From the sequence record ON862890.1: a DNA stretch of 64,000 nt; one strand, written 5' to 3'. The notes under the pieces were generated by a model. It was given only the letters and a program-made list of their open reading frames with translations, had not been told where the DNA came from and searched no databases. Source of the stretch: Escherichia phage A221. The position numbers and the translations under genes were made by a program. This document shows, one piece after another, positions 43,350 through 53,549 of this stretch (the first letter of the stretch is position 1; each line of letters begins with the position of its first letter).

Positions 43350-44570
43350 ATGAAAGATAAAGCCCTAGACGTCCCGTACTGCGGTGTCCGTGAAGAAAAG
43401 ATAAAGTCGGCCAAACCGGTTCTCAGTCCGACCCATACCAGCCTGTCTTACGAATGGATGCGCGATCGTTATCAGATCCACGTCAAGAAGGACGTCCAGC
43501 GCCTTCCTGCTCCTTGGACTGATAATCCCATATTACGGCAGGTCAAGTTCTGTAACGTCCGGAGAGAGCACGACAGGCAGTCTCTCAACCTGATCAACAA
43601 CATCGTCAACAACGATGCTCTGGGTATGGCCGACAAGATGTTCAACTGCGTGATGTTTCGCATGTTCAACCTCTGGGATCCAATCCAGGCTATCGGCGGC
43701 GCGATGACGATCAAAGAATTCGCCGAGATCAACCTCGATGCAACCCGCGAACGACTTCAGAAGTTCGAGGCCGACGGCGGTAAGGTATTCACCAATGCCT
43801 TCAACACGGGCGGCCTGAAGCAATGCCTGGCTTTCCCTGAGCTGGTTGTCAACCACAAGGAGCAGCGCTTCGGTGGGATGATGGTGAATCTGATCTGTAA
43901 AGATGGTTCAACCCAGAACATGGATTATAAAGAAGCCAAGGCGATAGCCGAAGCAGAACCGGACTTCTACACCATCGAAGGTTGGGAACCGTACATGCCA
44001 ATGCGTGTCATCCGCTCCCTGAAGGCATTCGTCAACAAGTATCCAAATTACTTCCATGACCTGCTGCGCCTTGGTACTCCTTTGGAAGTATACCAGCGCA
44101 TGTATGACGACATCGAAGGGCTTGGTCCATTCCTGGCCTATCAGATCTGGGTAGACTTCACTTACATTCCTGAATATCCTTTCAGTGAGAACCACTTCAC
44201 GGTTGCTGGACCAGGCTGTCGCGCAGGGATCGACCTGATGTTCCAGGACAAAGATGGCATGACGCATGAAGAATGCATCTTCTGGTTGCGGGACAATCAG
44301 GACGCGGTTTATGGCCCTCTTGGGTATAACAGGGAAGAATTTTGGTCTGCGGAAGAGCCTTGGGATCAGTGTATGAATGTGATGAGCATCGAGAATATGG
44401 CATGTGAATTGTCGAAATATACTCGTTGTGTAGAGGCCATACAGCAAGGTAAAAAACCGCGCGGGAAGGTTGGATATGACGGCGGTGGGGAATACAAAAA
44501 GCGCTGTGATGAAGTCGTGCTCAAACGTGGTTCCGTCAATTTGCTGGACCGTTTGAAGAAACCTGAATAA
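43350..44570 (+). CDS. hypothetical protein (DNA-metabolism neighbourhood)
   Basis: 406 aa; no catalytic motif confidently recognised; flanked by hairpin terminators on both sides. Confidence 0.4.
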   Translation: MKDKALDVPYCGVREEKIKSAKPVLSPTHTSLSYEWMRDRYQIHVKKDVQRLPAPWTDNPILRQVKFCNVRREHDRQSLNLINNIVNNDALGMADKMFNCVMFRMFNLWDPIQAIGGAMTIKEFAEINLDATRERLQKFEADGGKVFTNAFNTGGLKQCLAFPELVVNHKEQRFGGMMVNLICKDGSTQNMDYKEAKAIAEAEPDFYTIEGWEPYMPMRVIRSLKAFVNKYPNYFHDLLRLGTPLEVYQRMYDDIEGLGPFLAYQIWVDFTYIPEYPFSENHFTVAGPGCRAGIDLMFQDKDGMTHEECIFWLRDNQDAVYGPLGYNREEFWSAEEPWDQCMNVMSIENMACELSKYTRCVEAIQQGKKPRGKVGYDGGGEYKKRCDEVVLKRGSVNLLDRLKKPE

Positions 44571-44684: not shown

Positions 44685-46703
44685 ATGTCAGATTTTAAGC
44701 CCTTCGCAGTAGCTGTCAACAATAACGTGCTGGCCATGTCAGCAACTGGTCTGTTCATGACCAACATCGATAAAGATGCTCTGTGGGATCTGTATCTGTC
44801 TTCTTTCCCTGCTGGCACTAACCCGCTTTATCGTGAGCGTACCGAGCACGACTGCACCTGCTGTAAACAATTCATCCGTAACATCGGCGGTGTGGTCACC
44901 ATCGACTCCGACCTGAACGTGATCTCTATTTGGGATAACATTCAGCTGGGTAACGAATACGACGTTGTCGCTGCGGCGCTGTCAGCGTATGTTAAGCAGC
45001 ACGCAATCGTCGACGTGTACTTCAACGACACCAAGAAAGTTGGTGTTGAGTCGAATCACGAAATGAAAGACGGTATTGTCCGCACCTACAACCACTTCCA
45101 CACCGACCTGCTGGGCAGCTATGTTCTGCGGGCAGATACCATCGCTTCTAAGAAGGGTGAAATCCGCCAGGCGATTGAAGTGTTTGAGCGCGGCCTGCGT
45201 GAACTGTCTCTGGAATCGGCTGAAATCGTTCTTGAATTGATTGACCAGAATTCTCTGTATCGCGGTGAAGAGCACAAAGAGGCAGTGCAGGCGTTCGTGG
45301 TGAACAAGACCCTGTACGAACAAACTGCAGAAGAGAAACGCGCTCTGTGGGCTTGGCGCACTGGCTACCGTGCAAACGGTCATACCCCTCACGGCATTCG
45401 TAATACCGTGATTGGCTCTCTGCTGGTAGACCTCAATGAAGGCCGGGATCTGGAAACCGCCGTGAAGTCCTTTGAAGCCAAAGTCGCTCCGACGAACTAC
45501 AAGCGCCCAACCGCGCTGGTCACGAAGTCGATGATTGAAAACGCGCAGAAAGAAGTCGAAGCGCTGGGTCTGACTGATTCACTGGGTCGCCGTTATGCCG
45601 TGTATGACGATCTGACCATCAACAACGTTCTGTTCGCCGATCTGGCAGCTCAGAAGAAGATGGACCCGTTTGCTCAGCTGGCGTCTGAAGTGAAGACTCC
45701 GACCAAGTCCCTGGACAAGGTTGAAGAGATCACGATCGACGACTTCCTGACCAACGTGTTGCCAAAGGCGCATTCCCTGGAAGTACTGGTTGAAAACTCT
45801 CACATTGGCAACCTGATGTCCCTGATCGCTCCGGCTACCGCAGGCGCTCCTAACCTGTTCAAGTGGAACAACGGCTTCAGCTGGTCTTACAATGGCGAAG
45901 TGGCCGACTCTATCAAAGAGCGCGTAAAGACCGCAGGCGGCAATGTCGACAGTTTCCTCCGTGTGTCACTGGCTTGGCATAACAACGACGACCTGGATCT
46001 GAGCATGAACGATCCTCTTCACAACCACGTGTATTATCACAACCGTCGTTCGACAACTGGCGCAACTCTGGACATCGACATGAACGGTATGGACGGCATT
46101 GATCCAAACCGCCGTCCGGTGGAGAACATCTTCTTCAGCGATGAACGCAAGCTGCGTGATGGTCTGTACGAGTTCTATGTCACTAACTTCAGCCAGCGTG
46201 AAACCTGTGATATGGGATTCGAAATCGAAGTTGAATACAAAGGCCAGACCAAGCGTTTTTCGCATCCTGGCCTGAAGCACAAAGATCGCACTCTGGCTGT
46301 TGTGATTGATGTCCGCGCTGGACAAGTGGTAGACATCCGTTCTACCCTGAAAGACGACGCTCGCTCTCAGGAAATCTGGGGCATCAAGACCTCCGTCTTC
46401 CAGAAGGTACAGCTGGTTCTGAACTCACCAAACCATTGGGACGGCGAGCAGACTGGCAACAAGCACGTGTTCTTCATCCTGGAAGGTTGTGCTAACCCTG
46501 TCGGCACCCGTGGTTTCTATAACGAATATCTGAAGCCGGAACTTGATAAACACCGCAAGGTTTTTGAAATGTTAGGTGGTAAGATTAAAGTACAGCCAAG
46601 CACTGAGCAGCTGTCCGGTCTGGGCTTCTCTACCACCCAACGCAACCACGTGTTCGTGAAGGTGAGCGGCTCGTTCAACCGCACTGTGAAAGTTGTGTTC
46701 TAA
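44685..46703 (+). CDS. hypothetical protein with N-terminal Cys cluster
   Basis: 672 aa; HDCTCCKQF cysteine cluster; no P-loop; preceded by TTCAATAA-N12-TATATTGACC element and hairpin. Confidence 0.4.
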   Translation: MSDFKPFAVAVNNNVLAMSATGLFMTNIDKDALWDLYLSSFPAGTNPLYRERTEHDCTCCKQFIRNIGGVVTIDSDLNVISIWDNIQLGNEYDVVAAALSAYVKQHAIVDVYFNDTKKVGVESNHEMKDGIVRTYNHFHTDLLGSYVLRADTIASKKGEIRQAIEVFERGLRELSLESAEIVLELIDQNSLYRGEEHKEAVQAFVVNKTLYEQTAEEKRALWAWRTGYRANGHTPHGIRNTVIGSLLVDLNEGRDLETAVKSFEAKVAPTNYKRPTALVTKSMIENAQKEVEALGLTDSLGRRYAVYDDLTINNVLFADLAAQKKMDPFAQLASEVKTPTKSLDKVEEITIDDFLTNVLPKAHSLEVLVENSHIGNLMSLIAPATAGAPNLFKWNNGFSWSYNGEVADSIKERVKTAGGNVDSFLRVSLAWHNNDDLDLSMNDPLHNHVYYHNRRSTTGATLDIDMNGMDGIDPNRRPVENIFFSDERKLRDGLYEFYVTNFSQRETCDMGFEIEVEYKGQTKRFSHPGLKHKDRTLAVVIDVRAGQVVDIRSTLKDDARSQEIWGIKTSVFQKVQLVLNSPNHWDGEQTGNKHVFFILEGCANPVGTRGFYNEYLKPELDKHRKVFEMLGGKIKVQPSTEQLSGLGFSTTQRNHVFVKVSGSFNRTVKVVF

Positions 46704-47179: not shown

Positions 47180-47590
47180 ATGAAACCTGTTATATGTGAT
47201 TACTGCGGCCTCCCAGCCGAATTCGTCGGTGGTGATGTTCTCTACCCTCATCGCCCTGACCTCCGCAATCTGAAGTTCTGGGTGTGCACTCCATGTGATG
47301 CCCGTGTCGGTTGCCATACCCATGGCGACGGCAGACAACCTTTGGGAAGGATGGCGAATGCCGCTCTCCGTGCTGCTAAGCAGGAAGCCCATAGATCGTT
47401 TGACCCATTGTGGAAAAGCGGAGAGAGGAGCAGGAGCGACGCTTATAGTTGGCTGGCGCATAAGCTGGGGATAAAGAAGCGTGAGTGTCATATTGGCTTG
47501 TTCGATATCGACATGTGCCGTAAAGTAGTTGTTGTCTGTCAACAATACGAGGCACATATCAATGTCAAAGGAAATACAAGAAGCGTTTGA
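47180..47590 (+). CDS. zinc-ribbon protein (DUF3268-like)
   Basis: ATG at M10 of track ORF (codon 1 GTG inside terminator stem); CDYCG...CTPCDARVGCH cysteine pattern. Confidence 0.4.
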   Translation: MKPVICDYCGLPAEFVGGDVLYPHRPDLRNLKFWVCTPCDARVGCHTHGDGRQPLGRMANAALRAAKQEAHRSFDPLWKSGERSRSDAYSWLAHKLGIKKRECHIGLFDIDMCRKVVVVCQQYEAHINVKGNTRSV

Positions 47591-47867
47591 GAATCTAACT
47601 CAGGCGCTCACCAACTGCAACCGTCTCAACTATTGCAACGACCCATTGCAAAAGCTGAAGTCCCTGGTAGAATCAGAACTGGCTAAACTGGCCGAATACA
47701 ACGCCATCCAAGAAGACGTGGCGTTCATGTCGGACACGGTCGTAGACACCCTTCCGCGCGAAGTGTACAATGTCTTGGGCCGCATCACAAAGGTGGGTTT
47801 CCGTGAACCACAAGACGCCAAACCCACCCCCGAAATTCTTACATCCATCGTTGACTCGTTTAAGTGA
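47562..47867 (+). CDS. hypothetical protein
   Basis: ATG at M12 of track ORF 47529; gagg RBS; begins MSKEI like the next gene. Confidence 0.35.
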   Translation: MSKEIQEAFENLTQALTNCNRLNYCNDPLQKLKSLVESELAKLAEYNAIQEDVAFMSDTVVDTLPREVYNVLGRITKVGFREPQDAKPTPEILTSIVDSFK

Positions 47868-47873
47868 GACGCC

Positions 47874-48107
47874 ATGTCTAAAGAGATTATCTTTACCGGG
47901 GCGGCGCTTGACACCATGTATGCCCTGTACAATCGTGGTCCACTGAGCATTGGCGATATCCCGTCTAAGTCAGGTCTGGACTTCCTGTTACGACATAAGC
48001 TGGTTGTGGCTGTGGTGGTCAGGGGTGAAACGCAATACGCCGGGTCGATGGCCATGGCTTCCCACTACAAACGTCAGACATGGAAGGGTGCTTCCTCCAA
48101 ATCCTGA
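47874..48107 (+). CDS. hypothetical protein
   Basis: 77 aa; ATG start; begins MSKEI. Confidence 0.35.
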   Translation: MSKEIIFTGAALDTMYALYNRGPLSIGDIPSKSGLDFLLRHKLVVAVVVRGETQYAGSMAMASHYKRQTWKGASSKS

Positions 48108-48261
48108 GTTTGTCAAAACCTTTTCAATATCAATAACGTCCAGTGTAAATGCTGGGCGTTTCAATTAACTCTTCGCAGTATAATATGCCATGACTAACAA
48201 ACAGAGGCCTGGCCCATGTCCGTGAAATACCTGGTGTTACTGAAGTGAAGGTCGACTAACC

Positions 48262-48432
48262 ATGACAGAACCATTCAAGAAAGCTGGTCTAGACACCATC
48301 GACCTCAGCTTTAAACCGAGCGAAACGCTGATGAGTCAGATTGAACTCAATCGCGACTTCCTTGAATATATGCTGGTCAAGCCGGAAGGTGAGGCCGAAG
48401 ACAACCCTGAAGAAGGCAATAACGATGATTGA
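48262..48432 (+). CDS. small acidic protein (56 aa), translationally coupled to vWA gene
   Basis: Not in track; hand translation MTEPFKKAGLDTIDLSF...EGNNDD; stop TGA overlaps vWA start in ATGATTGA arrangement. Confidence 0.3.
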   Translation: MTEPFKKAGLDTIDLSFKPSETLMSQIELNRDFLEYMLVKPEGEAEDNPEEGNNDD

Positions 48433-50626
48433 ATCATTAGAATTTAAGAATGCGGTTGCGACTGCTGCCCCGTCCAACCATGTAATCGTTGTAGACATTT
48501 CTGGCTCTATGTACCGTGCACTCCCTGAAGTCCGTAAGCATCTGAAGGAGAACCTGCCTTCCCTGGTGAAACCGGAAGACACTGTGAGTGTTCTATACTT
48601 CTCATCTCGTGGCGACTTTGGCACTGTGTTCGCTGGTCGCCAGGTTAGTGCTGCGTCTGACCTGAGCGAGCTGAACAAACTGATCGACCGCTTCCTACAA
48701 CCATCTGGCTGTACTGGTTTTGTTGAGCCGTTGAAACTGGCGATGGACACTGCTCGTGGCCTGAAGAAGCCTGGCTATGTCAACAACCTGGCGTTCATGA
48801 CTGACGGGTATGACAACTGCTGGCGTACCAACGAAATTCTACTGGTTGCTGAGACCCTGCCATTTGCTTTCGATAACATTACATTTATCGAATATGGCTG
48901 GTACTGTAACCGCGAACTGCTGGCGCAGATGGCCGAACGCTCTGGTGCTACTCACGTGTTTGCCGAAGGTCAGACCGAATACCAGACCGAGCTGGAAAAC
49001 GTGCTGAAGTCATCAGTGCCGAAGGTGGTTGTTGATGTGCCTCTGTTATACACCCATGCTATCTATGTTGAAAACGGCGTAGCAACTGTTCTGGCGGTAC
49101 AGCCGGATGAAGACCATCCTATCGGCCACGTGAGCATCCCTGAGAGCGTCACCAAGCTGTGGGTTGTAAACCCTAACATGATCGACCAGATGGATAGCCT
49201 GACGGACATCCAGGCGGCATACGTGCTGGCGTTCTACGGCGTACACATCATGGACGCGGACCTGGTGTGGGCTGCACTGAAGAAAACGGGTGACGTTCGC
49301 TTCATCAAACAGTACAGCAACTGCTTCACCAAGCAGGACTACTCCAACATCAAGAACGATCTGGTTCAGGCGATTGTTGACGACCAGCTGCGCGGCGTTG
49401 ACGGTATTGACTATGACCTGGTTCCAGCTGAAGATGCGACCACCGTCGTTGATGTGCTGACGTACCTGGCTGAAGCTGGTGTGCCTGTTGCTACCAAGCA
49501 TCCGATGTTCTCCTATAAGAGCATCGGGCGCGGTACTGTGCAGAAAACCGACGACACCGAAGACAAGCTGGCAGAACAGATCGCGAATGCTCAGTCCAAA
49601 GAAGAGCGTAAAGCCCTGGCTCTCAAGCTGGCAGAGCACGAAGAGTGGAACCCGACGTTCGAACCTACCAACGACCTGGGTGTTGTGCCAATCAGCGATT
49701 TGGTCTATAACTCCGAGCGCCCGAACATCAGTGTGCGTACAATTCAACACGGTACTGTGGCTGTGCCTGAATTCGCACAGAAGAAGTTTGGCCTGCCTGA
49801 AGAACTGGATACTTTCCAGTGGCGCAACTACACCATCGTCAAAGACGGTATCATTAACGTGAAGACTCTGCCGTTCAAGGCTGATATCGAAGTTGTACAG
49901 AAGCTGATCGAAATGGGTGTCCACGTGTTTGGTGGTCCGGAAGTGTTCATCCTGAACCTGGAAAGCGTACCGCTGGTCAACCGCGCCATGGTCAAAAACA
50001 TCAGTGCTGCTCAGTTCTTTGCGGATAATGTCCGTCTGGAAGCCCTGAAAGGCAAGCAGAAGGTGCTGAAGTTCTATCGAGACGCCCTGGTTGGTAAGGG
50101 CAACGCCAAAGGCCTGGCAGTACAGTACGGCGCTGAGGCGGCCGAGTTCCTGTCCTCCTACGGCATCCGCGATTACGGCTTCTCACCGAAGACTGAGACC
50201 AAAGAGTCTACCGACTTCTACATGAGCCGTGAGCTGAACGTGAAGATCGCTGGCGCTTCTTCTCTACCGTCTATCGCAGCGGTACAGAAGAAGATTGCCG
50301 AGAACAAGAAACTCAATGCTGGTGACTTGTTCATCGCCAATGCGCTGAAGGAGTACGAAGCATTCGTGAAGTCTCCTATGATCACTGCCGTGCCTGAAGC
50401 CTTACAGAAACAGCTGATCGAAAACTGGATCGACGCTGCTGCCAAGGCGGCCATCACCGAAGTCCGTGCCCTGAACAAGACACTGTCTAAAGTGGTGTAT
50501 GGTATCGTTGCTGGCCACGGCTGGTTCACCGACCTCGACCTGGAAGAGTCCACCATGGAAGTTGAAGTGGATGGCGTGAAGTACAAGGTCACTGCCGAAC
50601 TGACAGAGAAAGAAATCAAAATCTAA
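48425..50626 (+). CDS. von Willebrand factor A (vWA) domain protein
   Basis: ATG at M29 of track ORF (codon 1 TTG); VVDISGSM MIDAS motif (DxSxS) and downstream MTDGYDN; about 500-aa C-terminal extension of unknown function. Confidence 0.6.
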   Translation: MIESLEFKNAVATAAPSNHVIVVDISGSMYRALPEVRKHLKENLPSLVKPEDTVSVLYFSSRGDFGTVFAGRQVSAASDLSELNKLIDRFLQPSGCTGFVEPLKLAMDTARGLKKPGYVNNLAFMTDGYDNCWRTNEILLVAETLPFAFDNITFIEYGWYCNRELLAQMAERSGATHVFAEGQTEYQTELENVLKSSVPKVVVDVPLLYTHAIYVENGVATVLAVQPDEDHPIGHVSIPESVTKLWVVNPNMIDQMDSLTDIQAAYVLAFYGVHIMDADLVWAALKKTGDVRFIKQYSNCFTKQDYSNIKNDLVQAIVDDQLRGVDGIDYDLVPAEDATTVVDVLTYLAEAGVPVATKHPMFSYKSIGRGTVQKTDDTEDKLAEQIANAQSKEERKALALKLAEHEEWNPTFEPTNDLGVVPISDLVYNSERPNISVRTIQHGTVAVPEFAQKKFGLPEELDTFQWRNYTIVKDGIINVKTLPFKADIEVVQKLIEMGVHVFGGPEVFILNLESVPLVNRAMVKNISAAQFFADNVRLEALKGKQKVLKFYRDALVGKGNAKGLAVQYGAEAAEFLSSYGIRDYGFSPKTETKESTDFYMSRELNVKIAGASSLPSIAAVQKKIAENKKLNAGDLFIANALKEYEAFVKSPMITAVPEALQKQLIENWIDAAAKAAITEVRALNKTLSKVVYGIVAGHGWFTDLDLEESTMEVEVDGVKYKVTAELTEKEIKI

Positions 50627-50633
50627 TCCAACG

Positions 50634-50658
50634 GGCGGGGCAACCCGCCTTTCTTTGG
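50634..50658 (+). terminator. intrinsic terminator after vWA gene
   Basis: GGCGGG-gcaa-CCCGCC followed by tttctttggg. Confidence 0.6.
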
Positions 50659-50668
50659 GAGAAGTAGC

Positions 50669-50992
50669 ATGAGCAGTAAACCAACATATGTTGAAGTCAT
50701 GCGTCATCTGGCTCAGTACGCCACCGACAATCTGAATATGGATCTGTGGCGTGACGATGACAAGCGCAAATTGCTGGACGACGTGGCATCTCAGAACGAG
50801 GACGCCCTGGACAAGCTGGCTGGCCTCCGTACCAAGAAAGACCTCGGTGGTGACGAACTGGATGCCATCGAAATCGTAATGGAACTAGAAGAAGAGTTTC
50901 AGGTCGAAATCGACGACGGGTGGCTAGGTAGTAAAGGCGATGACCCGACCATGGGTGAACTCGCTGAACTCGTGGTTGCCCTGCGCAAATAA
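50669..50992 (+). CDS. acyl-carrier-protein-like protein lacking the phosphopantetheine-attachment serine
   Basis: DLGGDELDAIEIVMELEEEFQVEIDD aligns with E. coli ACP [26 protein letters not shown], with Glu replacing the conserved Ser; own RBS; terminator hairpins on both sides. Confidence 0.6.
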   Translation: MSSKPTYVEVMRHLAQYATDNLNMDLWRDDDKRKLLDDVASQNEDALDKLAGLRTKKDLGGDELDAIEIVMELEEEFQVEIDDGWLGSKGDDPTMGELAELVVALRK

Positions 50993-52264: not shown

Positions 52265-52714
52265 ATGTTCCTTACATCTTTTATTGACTGGTTGAACATC
52301 ATTAACGGCCTGAGGATTCCTGTTGGGAACCTCGGGCTTTCTCGTTCTTCTATGCCGCAAATCGATGCCGACAAACAAGAAGATTTTCACAAATATCTTG
52401 AAGACAACGGCGTGTCCATAGATGCTGTGCAAGTGCCCATCAAAATGCTTCGTCTCACCCAGAACGAAATCAACAAGATGAAGGTCTGGAAGATCATGAA
52501 GAACATCAGAAATAAGAAACCTATGGGTCGAGTTTGGGTGTCTTCTGACAATTACGTTGTTGACGGTTCTCACCGATTTGTCGCTGCGTTGAACATGGAC
52601 GGCAAACAGCGCATGAAGGTCTACAAAGTTGATTTGCCAGCGATGGAATTTGTTAAACTCGCTAAACAGTTTCAGGGTGTGCGATACAGAACGGTCTCAG
52701 ATTCGAGATACTAA
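52265..52714 (+). CDS. ParB-like nuclease domain protein
   Basis: 149 aa; VVDGSHRFVAA matches the ParB/Srx DGxHR motif. Confidence 0.5.
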   Translation: MFLTSFIDWLNIINGLRIPVGNLGLSRSSMPQIDADKQEDFHKYLEDNGVSIDAVQVPIKMLRLTQNEINKMKVWKIMKNIRNKKPMGRVWVSSDNYVVDGSHRFVAALNMDGKQRMKVYKVDLPAMEFVKLAKQFQGVRYRTVSDSRY

Positions 52715-52715
52715 T

Positions 52716-53549
52716 ATGGACGTCTATTCAGAACTTATCGAAATAGGAGCGAAACGTCATTTCGTAAACAAATATCTTTCGCTCATTTCTTCTTTTAGTC
52801 ATTACCAAGGCGTCGGGGAGAAGCATCACATATTACCTGTGGCATTGTTCCCCGAATATGCCACGGAATACGAAAACATCGTCAAACTGCCTCATAGGGT
52901 TCATTATATTGCCCATGTGTGTCTTGCTCTTGCGTTACCAGGTTCATGTATGGTAAATGCGATTATGATTTTGAAGCGGTTAGATAGTAGAGTCAACTCA
53001 CACCTGTTTGCGAAAATGCGCAAGAGATTCGCCGAAAGGCTTTCTGTGGTGAATGCAGGGGAAAATAATCCCATGTATGGCAAGAAGAGATCCCAGAAGG
53101 CAAAGAAAAAGACCTCGGAGTCTCTTAGAAATTTTTATAAATCTAAAAGAAAAGAAGATCCAGATTTAAAAGAATTTTTCTCGGAAAGGAATTCTAAAAT
53201 AAAACGGGGAAAAGATCACCATTCTTATGGGAATAAATTGACCAATAATCTTACTCCAGAACAAGAACGATGTAGAATAGAATCGGTCACCAAGACTTCC
53301 CGTGAAACCATGCCCTGGGAGAAGCCAAGATGGAAACCAGAAAGGGACAAATGGTGGTGTTGGGCTGCACATATACACTATCACATATTGAAAGGTAAGA
53401 CGAGAGGGGAAGCCCTGAAACAAGTATTCGGTTCCAATGACGCAGAAATTTGGGCACAGGTTCGGCCAATTATTCTACGGTTGGATAACGGTTGGGACCC
53501 TTTAACTTGCGAAAAATGGGTTAATCGTTATGGGGTGGAATACCAGTAA
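52716..53549 (+). CDS. HNH homing endonuclease with NUMOD3-like motifs
   Basis: ATG at M30 of track ORF; HHILPVALFPEYATEYENIVKLPHRVHYIAH HNH core; two NPMYGKK / HHSYGNK NUMOD3-like repeats; starts 1 nt after ParB-like gene stop. Confidence 0.75.
   Translation: MDVYSELIEIGAKRHFVNKYLSLISSFSHYQGVGEKHHILPVALFPEYATEYENIVKLPHRVHYIAHVCLALALPGSCMVNAIMILKRLDSRVNSHLFAKMRKRFAERLSVVNAGENNPMYGKKRSQKAKKKTSESLRNFYKSKRKEDPDLKEFFSERNSKIKRGKDHHSYGNKLTNNLTPEQERCRIESVTKTSRETMPWEKPRWKPERDKWWCWAAHIHYHILKGKTRGEALKQVFGSNDAEIWAQVRPIILRLDNGWDPLTCEKWVNRYGVEYQ

Follow-up and report, generated by a model that had tools for sequence, protein, structure and literature searches.

What is the function of the large von Willebrand factor A (vWA) protein of Escherichia phage A221, and is the small open reading frame (ORF) overlapping its start codon a partner of this protein or only a neighbour? 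Both questions are raised by a locus in the 64,000-nucleotide stretch of A221 DNA that we analysed (ON862890.1; called the window below). At this locus two genes of an Ackermannviridae phage form a unit, bounded by a 154-nt gap and a terminator-like hairpin. The small ORF (48262..48432, + strand, 56 amino acids, TGA stop at 48430-48432), present in the ORF list and in the sequence, is followed by the gene of the large protein (48425..50626, +, ATG at 48425), a product of 733 amino acids, 81.2 kDa and isoelectric point (pI) 5.1 with a metal-ion-dependent adhesion site (MIDAS). We tentatively propose that the large protein acts as an adaptor, binding other proteins through its MIDAS and carrying a family-specific C-terminal module, and that in Ackermannviridae it is joined by a small helical accessory protein encoded on the same transcript.

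All 733 residues of the large protein align with the PHROG 2426 profile (positions 2-736 of 736; E = 0, 1229.7 bits). Its Pfam vWA match is weak (PF00092, residues 20-184, 26.8 bits against a curated cut-off of 23.8); Pfam gave nothing else in this protein, NCBIfam only sub-threshold vWA matches, and the PADLOC defence/anti-defence catalogue no match, while neither a signal peptide nor a membrane segment was found in its sequence. The MIDAS pattern DxSxS...T...D is complete, being formed by D24 (48494-48496), S26, S28, T97 (48713-48715) and D127 (48803-48805). These five residues, together with G128, D130 and N131, are invariant in an alignment of 40 homologues with identity down to 34%, so that the complete N-terminal motif claimed in the initial annotation was confirmed and is strongly constrained. 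Among 5.8 billion proteins searched, 202 homologues were found; 120 of them were listed, most being full length, with identity down to about 33%.

The AlphaFold2 model built on the 40-sequence alignment is confident (pLDDT, the predicted local distance difference test, 86.8; pTM, the predicted template modelling score, 0.73). It confirms a Rossmann-like alpha/beta vWA fold for the N-terminal domain (residues ~1-195; 48425..49009, +), after which a small beta-sandwich is packed (residues ~197-248; 49013..49168, +). The longest structural alignments (264-304 residues) were obtained with 4fx5, ITIH1, the archaeal Sec23/24-like ArnB (8s05_B), Sec24 and Sec23A, in all of which a vWA domain is likewise followed by a beta-sandwich. 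The remainder forms an alpha/beta module (residues ~250-733; 49172..50623, +), with a variable helical hairpin at ~375-405 and without any solved or annotated structural relative. Its sequence profile had no match in the PDB, in agreement with the earlier description of a long uncharacterised C-terminal region, and among predicted viral structures (BFVD) the sole significant matches (4 at E <= 0.001) were uncharacterised proteins of the same family. The module, ~480 residues long, occurs in this phage family alone and seems to adopt a fold without a counterpart among solved structures. Many of its polar residues are invariant (D290, R432, N434, S436, D474, K546, D597, Y599). Its profile retrieved 1371 cluster representatives (50% identity) among 1.84 billion proteins, and in the best 150 of them the module is preceded by an N-terminal region of ~200-270 residues, apart from some shorter proteins that start within or just before it. 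The number of clusters and their common layout indicate a large family with a fixed architecture.

By tblastn the large protein was found in 503 phage records, 8 Bacillus-phage records being included in this count without inspection of their contents. The other records comprise Ackermannviridae, Straboviridae of the Pseudotevenvirus/Slopekvirus type (GAP161, CfP1, PMBT1; ~49% identity), Pseudomonas phage pf16 (36%) and Rhizobium phages, and the viral-contig loci include jumbo-phage contigs of 300-500 kb. The suggestion that the protein has no T4 counterpart seems to hold for T4-type phages themselves (38 Escherichia matches against 24 Escherichia records of Ackermannviridae type), but not for the T4-related Pseudotevenvirus and Slopekvirus, whose homologues of ~49% identity are full length. 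Cellular homologues were limited to 7 loci when one genome was searched for each of 185,579 prokaryotic species; one of these lies on a phage-sized contig, and their contexts were uninformative. No neighbouring gene of vWA is conserved outside Ackermannviridae, and in pf16 and a 139-kb metagenomic phage the gene forms a separate transcription unit. In Vi01-like phages it is among the 114 core genes (PMC10892097, Table 5). The proposed adaptor function is supported by this core status, by the invariance of the MIDAS in 40 homologues, and by the size and fixed architecture of the family.

MIDAS sites bind carboxylates of their ligands, as in integrin I domains, Rea1-MIDAS and vWA proteins of the CbbO/NorD type. 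By analogy, the site of the phage protein would hold Mg2+ or Mn2+ whose coordination is completed by a carboxylate of a partner protein, of either phage or host origin, and the C-terminal module would supply a family-specific activity or a second binding surface. The small protein would be a fast-evolving, lineage-specific accessory, translated from the shared mRNA immediately before vWA. Most likely it would bind the vWA protein through its one conserved amphipathic helix (P..L..QIE.NR.F...ML), and it could serve as a chaperone or regulator, perhaps donating its nearly invariant Glu28 to the MIDAS.

To judge from sequence comparison, the small ORF truly encodes a protein and is subject to purifying selection: pairwise dN/dS (the ratio of nonsynonymous to synonymous substitution rates) among its type-A copies was 0.06-0.5, with a single close pair at 0.79. 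It matches PHROG 8656 end to end (E 1e-31) and also PHROG 11447 (E 3e-12). Homologues occur in 209 phage records, all of Ackermannviridae type, and in 39 protein clusters, whose members with long contigs on record sit on contigs of ~150-160 kb. Contrary to the initial annotation, the ORF is not unannotated in general, as it was called in ChubbyThor (gp159), ZQ1 and many other genomes, though not in Vi01. In two Kuttervirus loci it is intact, but an in-frame ATG is missing at the homologous position, and a non-ATG start is therefore likely there. At least four sequence types and a Serratia-phage form can be distinguished; they share a helix-like core (P19, L23, E28, F33, M37, L38). The window protein has this conserved amphipathic-helix core and a variable acidic tail. 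Its acidity was noted previously, and this is correct for the window copy (net charge -10, pI 4.1); since the charge of homologues ranges from -10 to 0, however, acidity is lineage-specific and not a trait of the family. In LIMEstone1 the small ORF constitutes the C-terminal third of the 180-aa ORF109 (L087 4129-4671; L006 5466-6008), joined in frame to the upstream gene, which reflects either a true in-frame fusion or a mis-called start. Part of the N-terminal region of ORF109 resembles ChubbyThor gp160, a separate gene located 5' of the small ORF, on the basis of a short segment (VSHFKAWRKQK against QLVSHFKKWRK). In a Rosetta-stone test, homologues of the large protein with long N-termini (P0221, P0259, P0190 and others) were found to carry no helix like that of the small ORF.

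The end of the small ORF indeed overlaps the start of the vWA gene, as reported initially, by 8 nt (ATGATTGA, 48425..48432, +) that contain the vWA start codon and the small-ORF stop codon, and the loci of Aglimvirinae and Cvivirinae, with few exceptions, have an identical junction. A separate Shine-Dalgarno sequence for the vWA gene, GAAGG (48412..48416, +), is located 8 nt before the ATG and within the last codons (E-G) of the small ORF; AAGG, AGGGG or GAAGAG occupies this position in relatives. The small-ORF tail, (E/K)-G-(N/Q)-N-D-D-stop (EGNNDD* in the window), is encoded by GAAGGCAATAACGATGATTGA, which holds both this Shine-Dalgarno sequence and the start codon. Conservation of the tail is thus explained by the overlapping ribosome-binding site and start codon, and the hexapeptide would be no functional motif. 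From the sequence, another GAAGG (48247..48251, +), 10 nt 5' of the small-ORF ATG, may be read as a Shine-Dalgarno-like element. The 154-nt gap further upstream contains a TATAAT hexamer (48179..48184, +), a possible but weak -10 element that was not among the calls of a strict sigma-70 scan; a block GCTGGGCGTTTCAATTAAC...GTATAAT is kept in the relative L010. Seven nucleotides past the vWA stop codon lies an intrinsic-terminator-like hairpin, GGGCGGG-GCAA-CCCGCCT (50633-50650), which with its T-run spans 50633..50660 (+); terminators are annotated at the same spot in LIMEstone1 and pf16. A functional link between the two genes is supported by this conserved terminator, by purifying selection on the small ORF, by the helix core retained in four types and by the adjacency that is kept. 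The small ORF is directly 5' of vWA in every Aglimvirinae, Cvivirinae and Serratia-phage locus examined, even though genes further upstream vary, and homologue searches found its family nowhere other than beside vWA in Ackermannviridae.

Several of our findings nevertheless weigh against an adaptor acting together with a small partner. The structure searches with the C-terminal module gave no clue to its function. In LIMEstone1 virions 6 peptides of the vWA protein (11.4% coverage) were identified by mass spectrometry, and it was listed among the structural proteins (PMC3296691), which argues against a purely intracellular role. Same-strand junctions overlap at 9 of 20 positions in ChubbyThor and at 13 of 21 in GAP161. 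Most members of the vWA family lack the small ORF, among them those of Bue1, the Aeromonas phage, Straboviridae, pf16 and jumbo phages; it occurs only in Ackermannviridae loci whose vWA proteins are at least 55% identical. Nor do the two proteins diverge together: in L003 the vWA protein is 97% identical and the small ORF product 41%, while in L013 the values are 76% and 68%. These absences, and the mosaic relation of the small ORF to vWA, rule it out as an obligatory partner; and as such overlaps are the norm in these genomes, translational coupling alone is no sign of a stoichiometric one. With an own Shine-Dalgarno sequence of vWA, frequent overlaps, and failure of both co-occurrence and co-divergence, the case for stoichiometric pairing is weaker than initially claimed, although the small ORF may possibly still be such a partner.

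The same observations raise the possibility that the two genes are mere neighbours, their 8-nt overlap being ordinary phage packing and their products not interacting. Such packing would agree with the junctions of the related genomes and with the vWA gene having its own ribosome-binding site. It would also agree with the independent exchange of small-ORF types, with the restriction of the small-ORF family to Ackermannviridae, and with the replacement of the small ORF elsewhere: the vWA start of the Aeromonas relative L031 has a 4-nt overlap with an unrelated ORF of 89 aa, and other genes precede vWA in Straboviridae. On the other hand, the adjacency persists despite the changing upstream genes, the small-ORF family is seen nowhere else, and four divergent types retain the same helix core. 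We regard simple neighbourhood as somewhat unlikely.

Another explanation would be that the protein is associated with virions at low copy number, as a minor part of the structure or as a protein ejected with the DNA, and that its MIDAS binds a target in the host envelope or cytoplasm at the start of infection. The LIMEstone1 peptides point in this direction, while in CsCl-purified Sajous1 a single spectrum of the vWA protein was recorded against 924 for the capsid protein (PMC10892097). The two data sets conflict, and virion association of the protein is disputed. In the Vi01 record, Vi01_123c is annotated just as uncharacterised, whereas a neighbour is labelled 'phage associated protein'. 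Moreover, the gene lies outside the structural module, among genes of replication and nucleotide metabolism (clamp loader, RegA, MazG-like protein, 5-hydroxymethyldeoxyuridine (5-hmdU) DNA kinase); no T4-type late promoter (TATAAATA) was found near the two-gene unit, and no signal or capsid-targeting sequence in the protein. A role in the virion seems to us rather improbable.

A broader assembly might include the gene downstream of the hairpin (50669-50992, +). Its product is named 'acyl carrier protein' (ACP) in relatives and matches Pfam PP-binding (E 1e-5), but reads DLGGD-E-LDAIEIVMELEEEF when compared with E. coli ACP at the corresponding position. Each of the 20 distinct homologues aligned from Ackermannviridae has Glu, or in Kuttervirus Asp, instead of the phosphopantetheine serine. 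Because the attachment residue is replaced, the protein should be unable to serve as a functional carrier, and 'pseudo-ACP' would be a better name. We found the gene in 271 phage records, whose host genera are those of the Ackermannviridae matches, and a Pseudomonas jumbo phage supplied at least one further, partial match; in Ackermannviridae the gene is always located just 3' of vWA. In the loci fetched, the pseudo-ACP gene and the small ORF both flank vWA only where vWA identity is at least 55%; neither is found next to vWA in Bue1, in the Aeromonas phage or in any Straboviridae or jumbo locus. It is conceivable, but quite improbable, that the three genes make up one conserved Ackermannviridae cassette, whose products assemble through the MIDAS metal and in which a decoy ACP engages ACP-dependent machinery of the host. 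In such a complex the MIDAS would be plugged by a carboxylate, contributed by Glu28 of the small helix or by the Glu/Asp found in place of the pseudo-ACP serine, and the decoy would be used by a vWA protein with a structurally novel C-terminal module.

That the vWA protein serves as an adaptor of a MoxR-type AAA+ chaperone system (like CobT, ChlD, ViaA, NorD and CbbO), remodelling its targets with the help of a phage or host ATPase, we consider very unlikely. No AAA+/MoxR gene was found within 6 kb in 75 viral loci or in the distant contexts, a search in which whole genomes were not scanned exhaustively, and two bacterial loci yielded only weak sub-threshold AAA_16 matches. The paper on Vi01-like genomes mentions no such ATPase, and the vWA domain is N-terminal here but C-terminal in CobT, ChlD and NorD. 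A Ku-like or Sec23/24-like machine (vWA, beta-barrel and helical domain) binding DNA ends or membranes is scarcely credible, having been largely refuted by the structure comparison, in which the ring-forming beta-barrel and C-terminal arm that follow vWA in Ku70/80 were not found in the phage protein.

Identity of the region to Escherichia phage vB_EcoM-ZQ1 is 96%, and to the remaining top-ranked relatives 86-97%; in total, matches of 60-99% were obtained with 247 records that are of Agtrevirus, Limestonevirus, Kuttervirus and Taipeivirus type. Since the closest matches are of these genera, the window is an Ackermannviridae (Aglimvirinae) genome and not one of T4 type. The large protein is 76-99% identical to those of the same four genera, and its gene has the same place in the window and in the named Ackermannviridae relatives, between a DUF3268 zinc-finger gene and the ACP-like gene. 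Directly 5' of the conserved genes there is a recombination hot spot. In ChubbyThor (L001 3113-5628) genes of ribose-phosphate pyrophosphokinase and nicotinamide phosphoribosyltransferase (salvage of nicotinamide adenine dinucleotide) lie between the zinc-finger gene and the small ORF; in LIMEstone1 just a 110-aa nadV remnant of the salvage genes is left at that place, and the window (47600-48260) has two small unrelated ORFs there, 47529-47867 and 47874-48107. No RNA elements or tRNAs were found at the locus. Antisense ORFs of 153 aa (48289-48750, -) and 292 aa (49046-49924, -) lie within the vWA gene and have counterparts in 49-72 loci (clusters 1 and 2); their recurrence tracks the vWA gene itself, and both are most likely codon-bias shadows and not genes.

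Some more distant genes deserve comment. A match to PF18723 HMUDK_hel (E 3e-81) identifies the 406-aa protein encoded at 43350-44570 (+) as the 5-hmdU DNA kinase, with which thymidine hypermodification begins, a pathway that leads to 5-(2-aminoethoxy)methyldeoxyuridine (5-NeOmdU) in ViI. By gene order, the kinase appears to correspond to Sajous1 gp179/gp180, given as 'putative DNA-directed RNA polymerase' in the table of the Vi01-like phage paper. A connection of the vWA protein with this pathway, suggested by the kinase gene 3.8 kb upstream, was considered and seems unlikely: the pathway paper does not mention vWA, and the family is present in many phages in which no such link is seen. Directly 3' of the kinase gene, a 672-aa protein (44685-46703, +) of PHROG 1735 bears a Cys-rich N-terminus (HDCTCCKQF) and no match in Pfam, NCBIfam or PADLOC; labelled 'putative DNA-directed RNA polymerase' in ChubbyThor, it is kept in 24 of 25 Ackermannviridae-type loci, the exception being the Aeromonas-type L031. 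A NUMOD3 motif (E 9e-9) in the 306-aa ORF at 52629-53549 (+) suggests a homing-endonuclease-like gene. As listed, this ORF overlaps the preceding 149-aa ORF (52265-52714), whose Vi01 homologue is labelled 'phage associated'.

Among the uncharacterised families of large virulent myoviruses, that of the large protein is one of the bigger, and it belongs to the core genes of Ackermannviridae, phages in wide use for phage therapy and biocontrol. The invariant MIDAS of the protein provides a precise, mutable handle toward the binding partner. Assignment of the function would annotate hundreds of phage genomes and decide between a place in the virion and an intracellular role.

When compared with known systems, PHROG 2426 and PHROG 8656 are both catalogued conserved phage families of unknown function, to which the window adds a further member without new biology over its relatives. 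The large protein shows no substantive difference from the PHROG 2426 members Vi01_123c, LIMEstone1 ORF108 and ChubbyThor gp158, while among the small hypothetical Ackermannviridae proteins of PHROG 8656 and 11447 the window copy, with its net charge of -10, is the most acidic variant seen. The MoxR-associated vWA adaptors (CobT, ChlD/BchD, ViaA, NorD, CbbO) differ from the phage protein in their domain order, which is reversed, and in the partner AAA+ gene, which it lacks in the contexts examined. With 4fx5, ITIH1 and the core of ArnB and Sec23/Sec24 it shares the vWA trunk and beta-sandwich. The phage protein differs from ArnB and Sec23/Sec24, however, in lacking a zinc finger, a helical or gelsolin domain of the Sec type and an FHA partner like ArnA; its MIDAS is complete and invariant, and its remaining 480 residues are unrelated to theirs.

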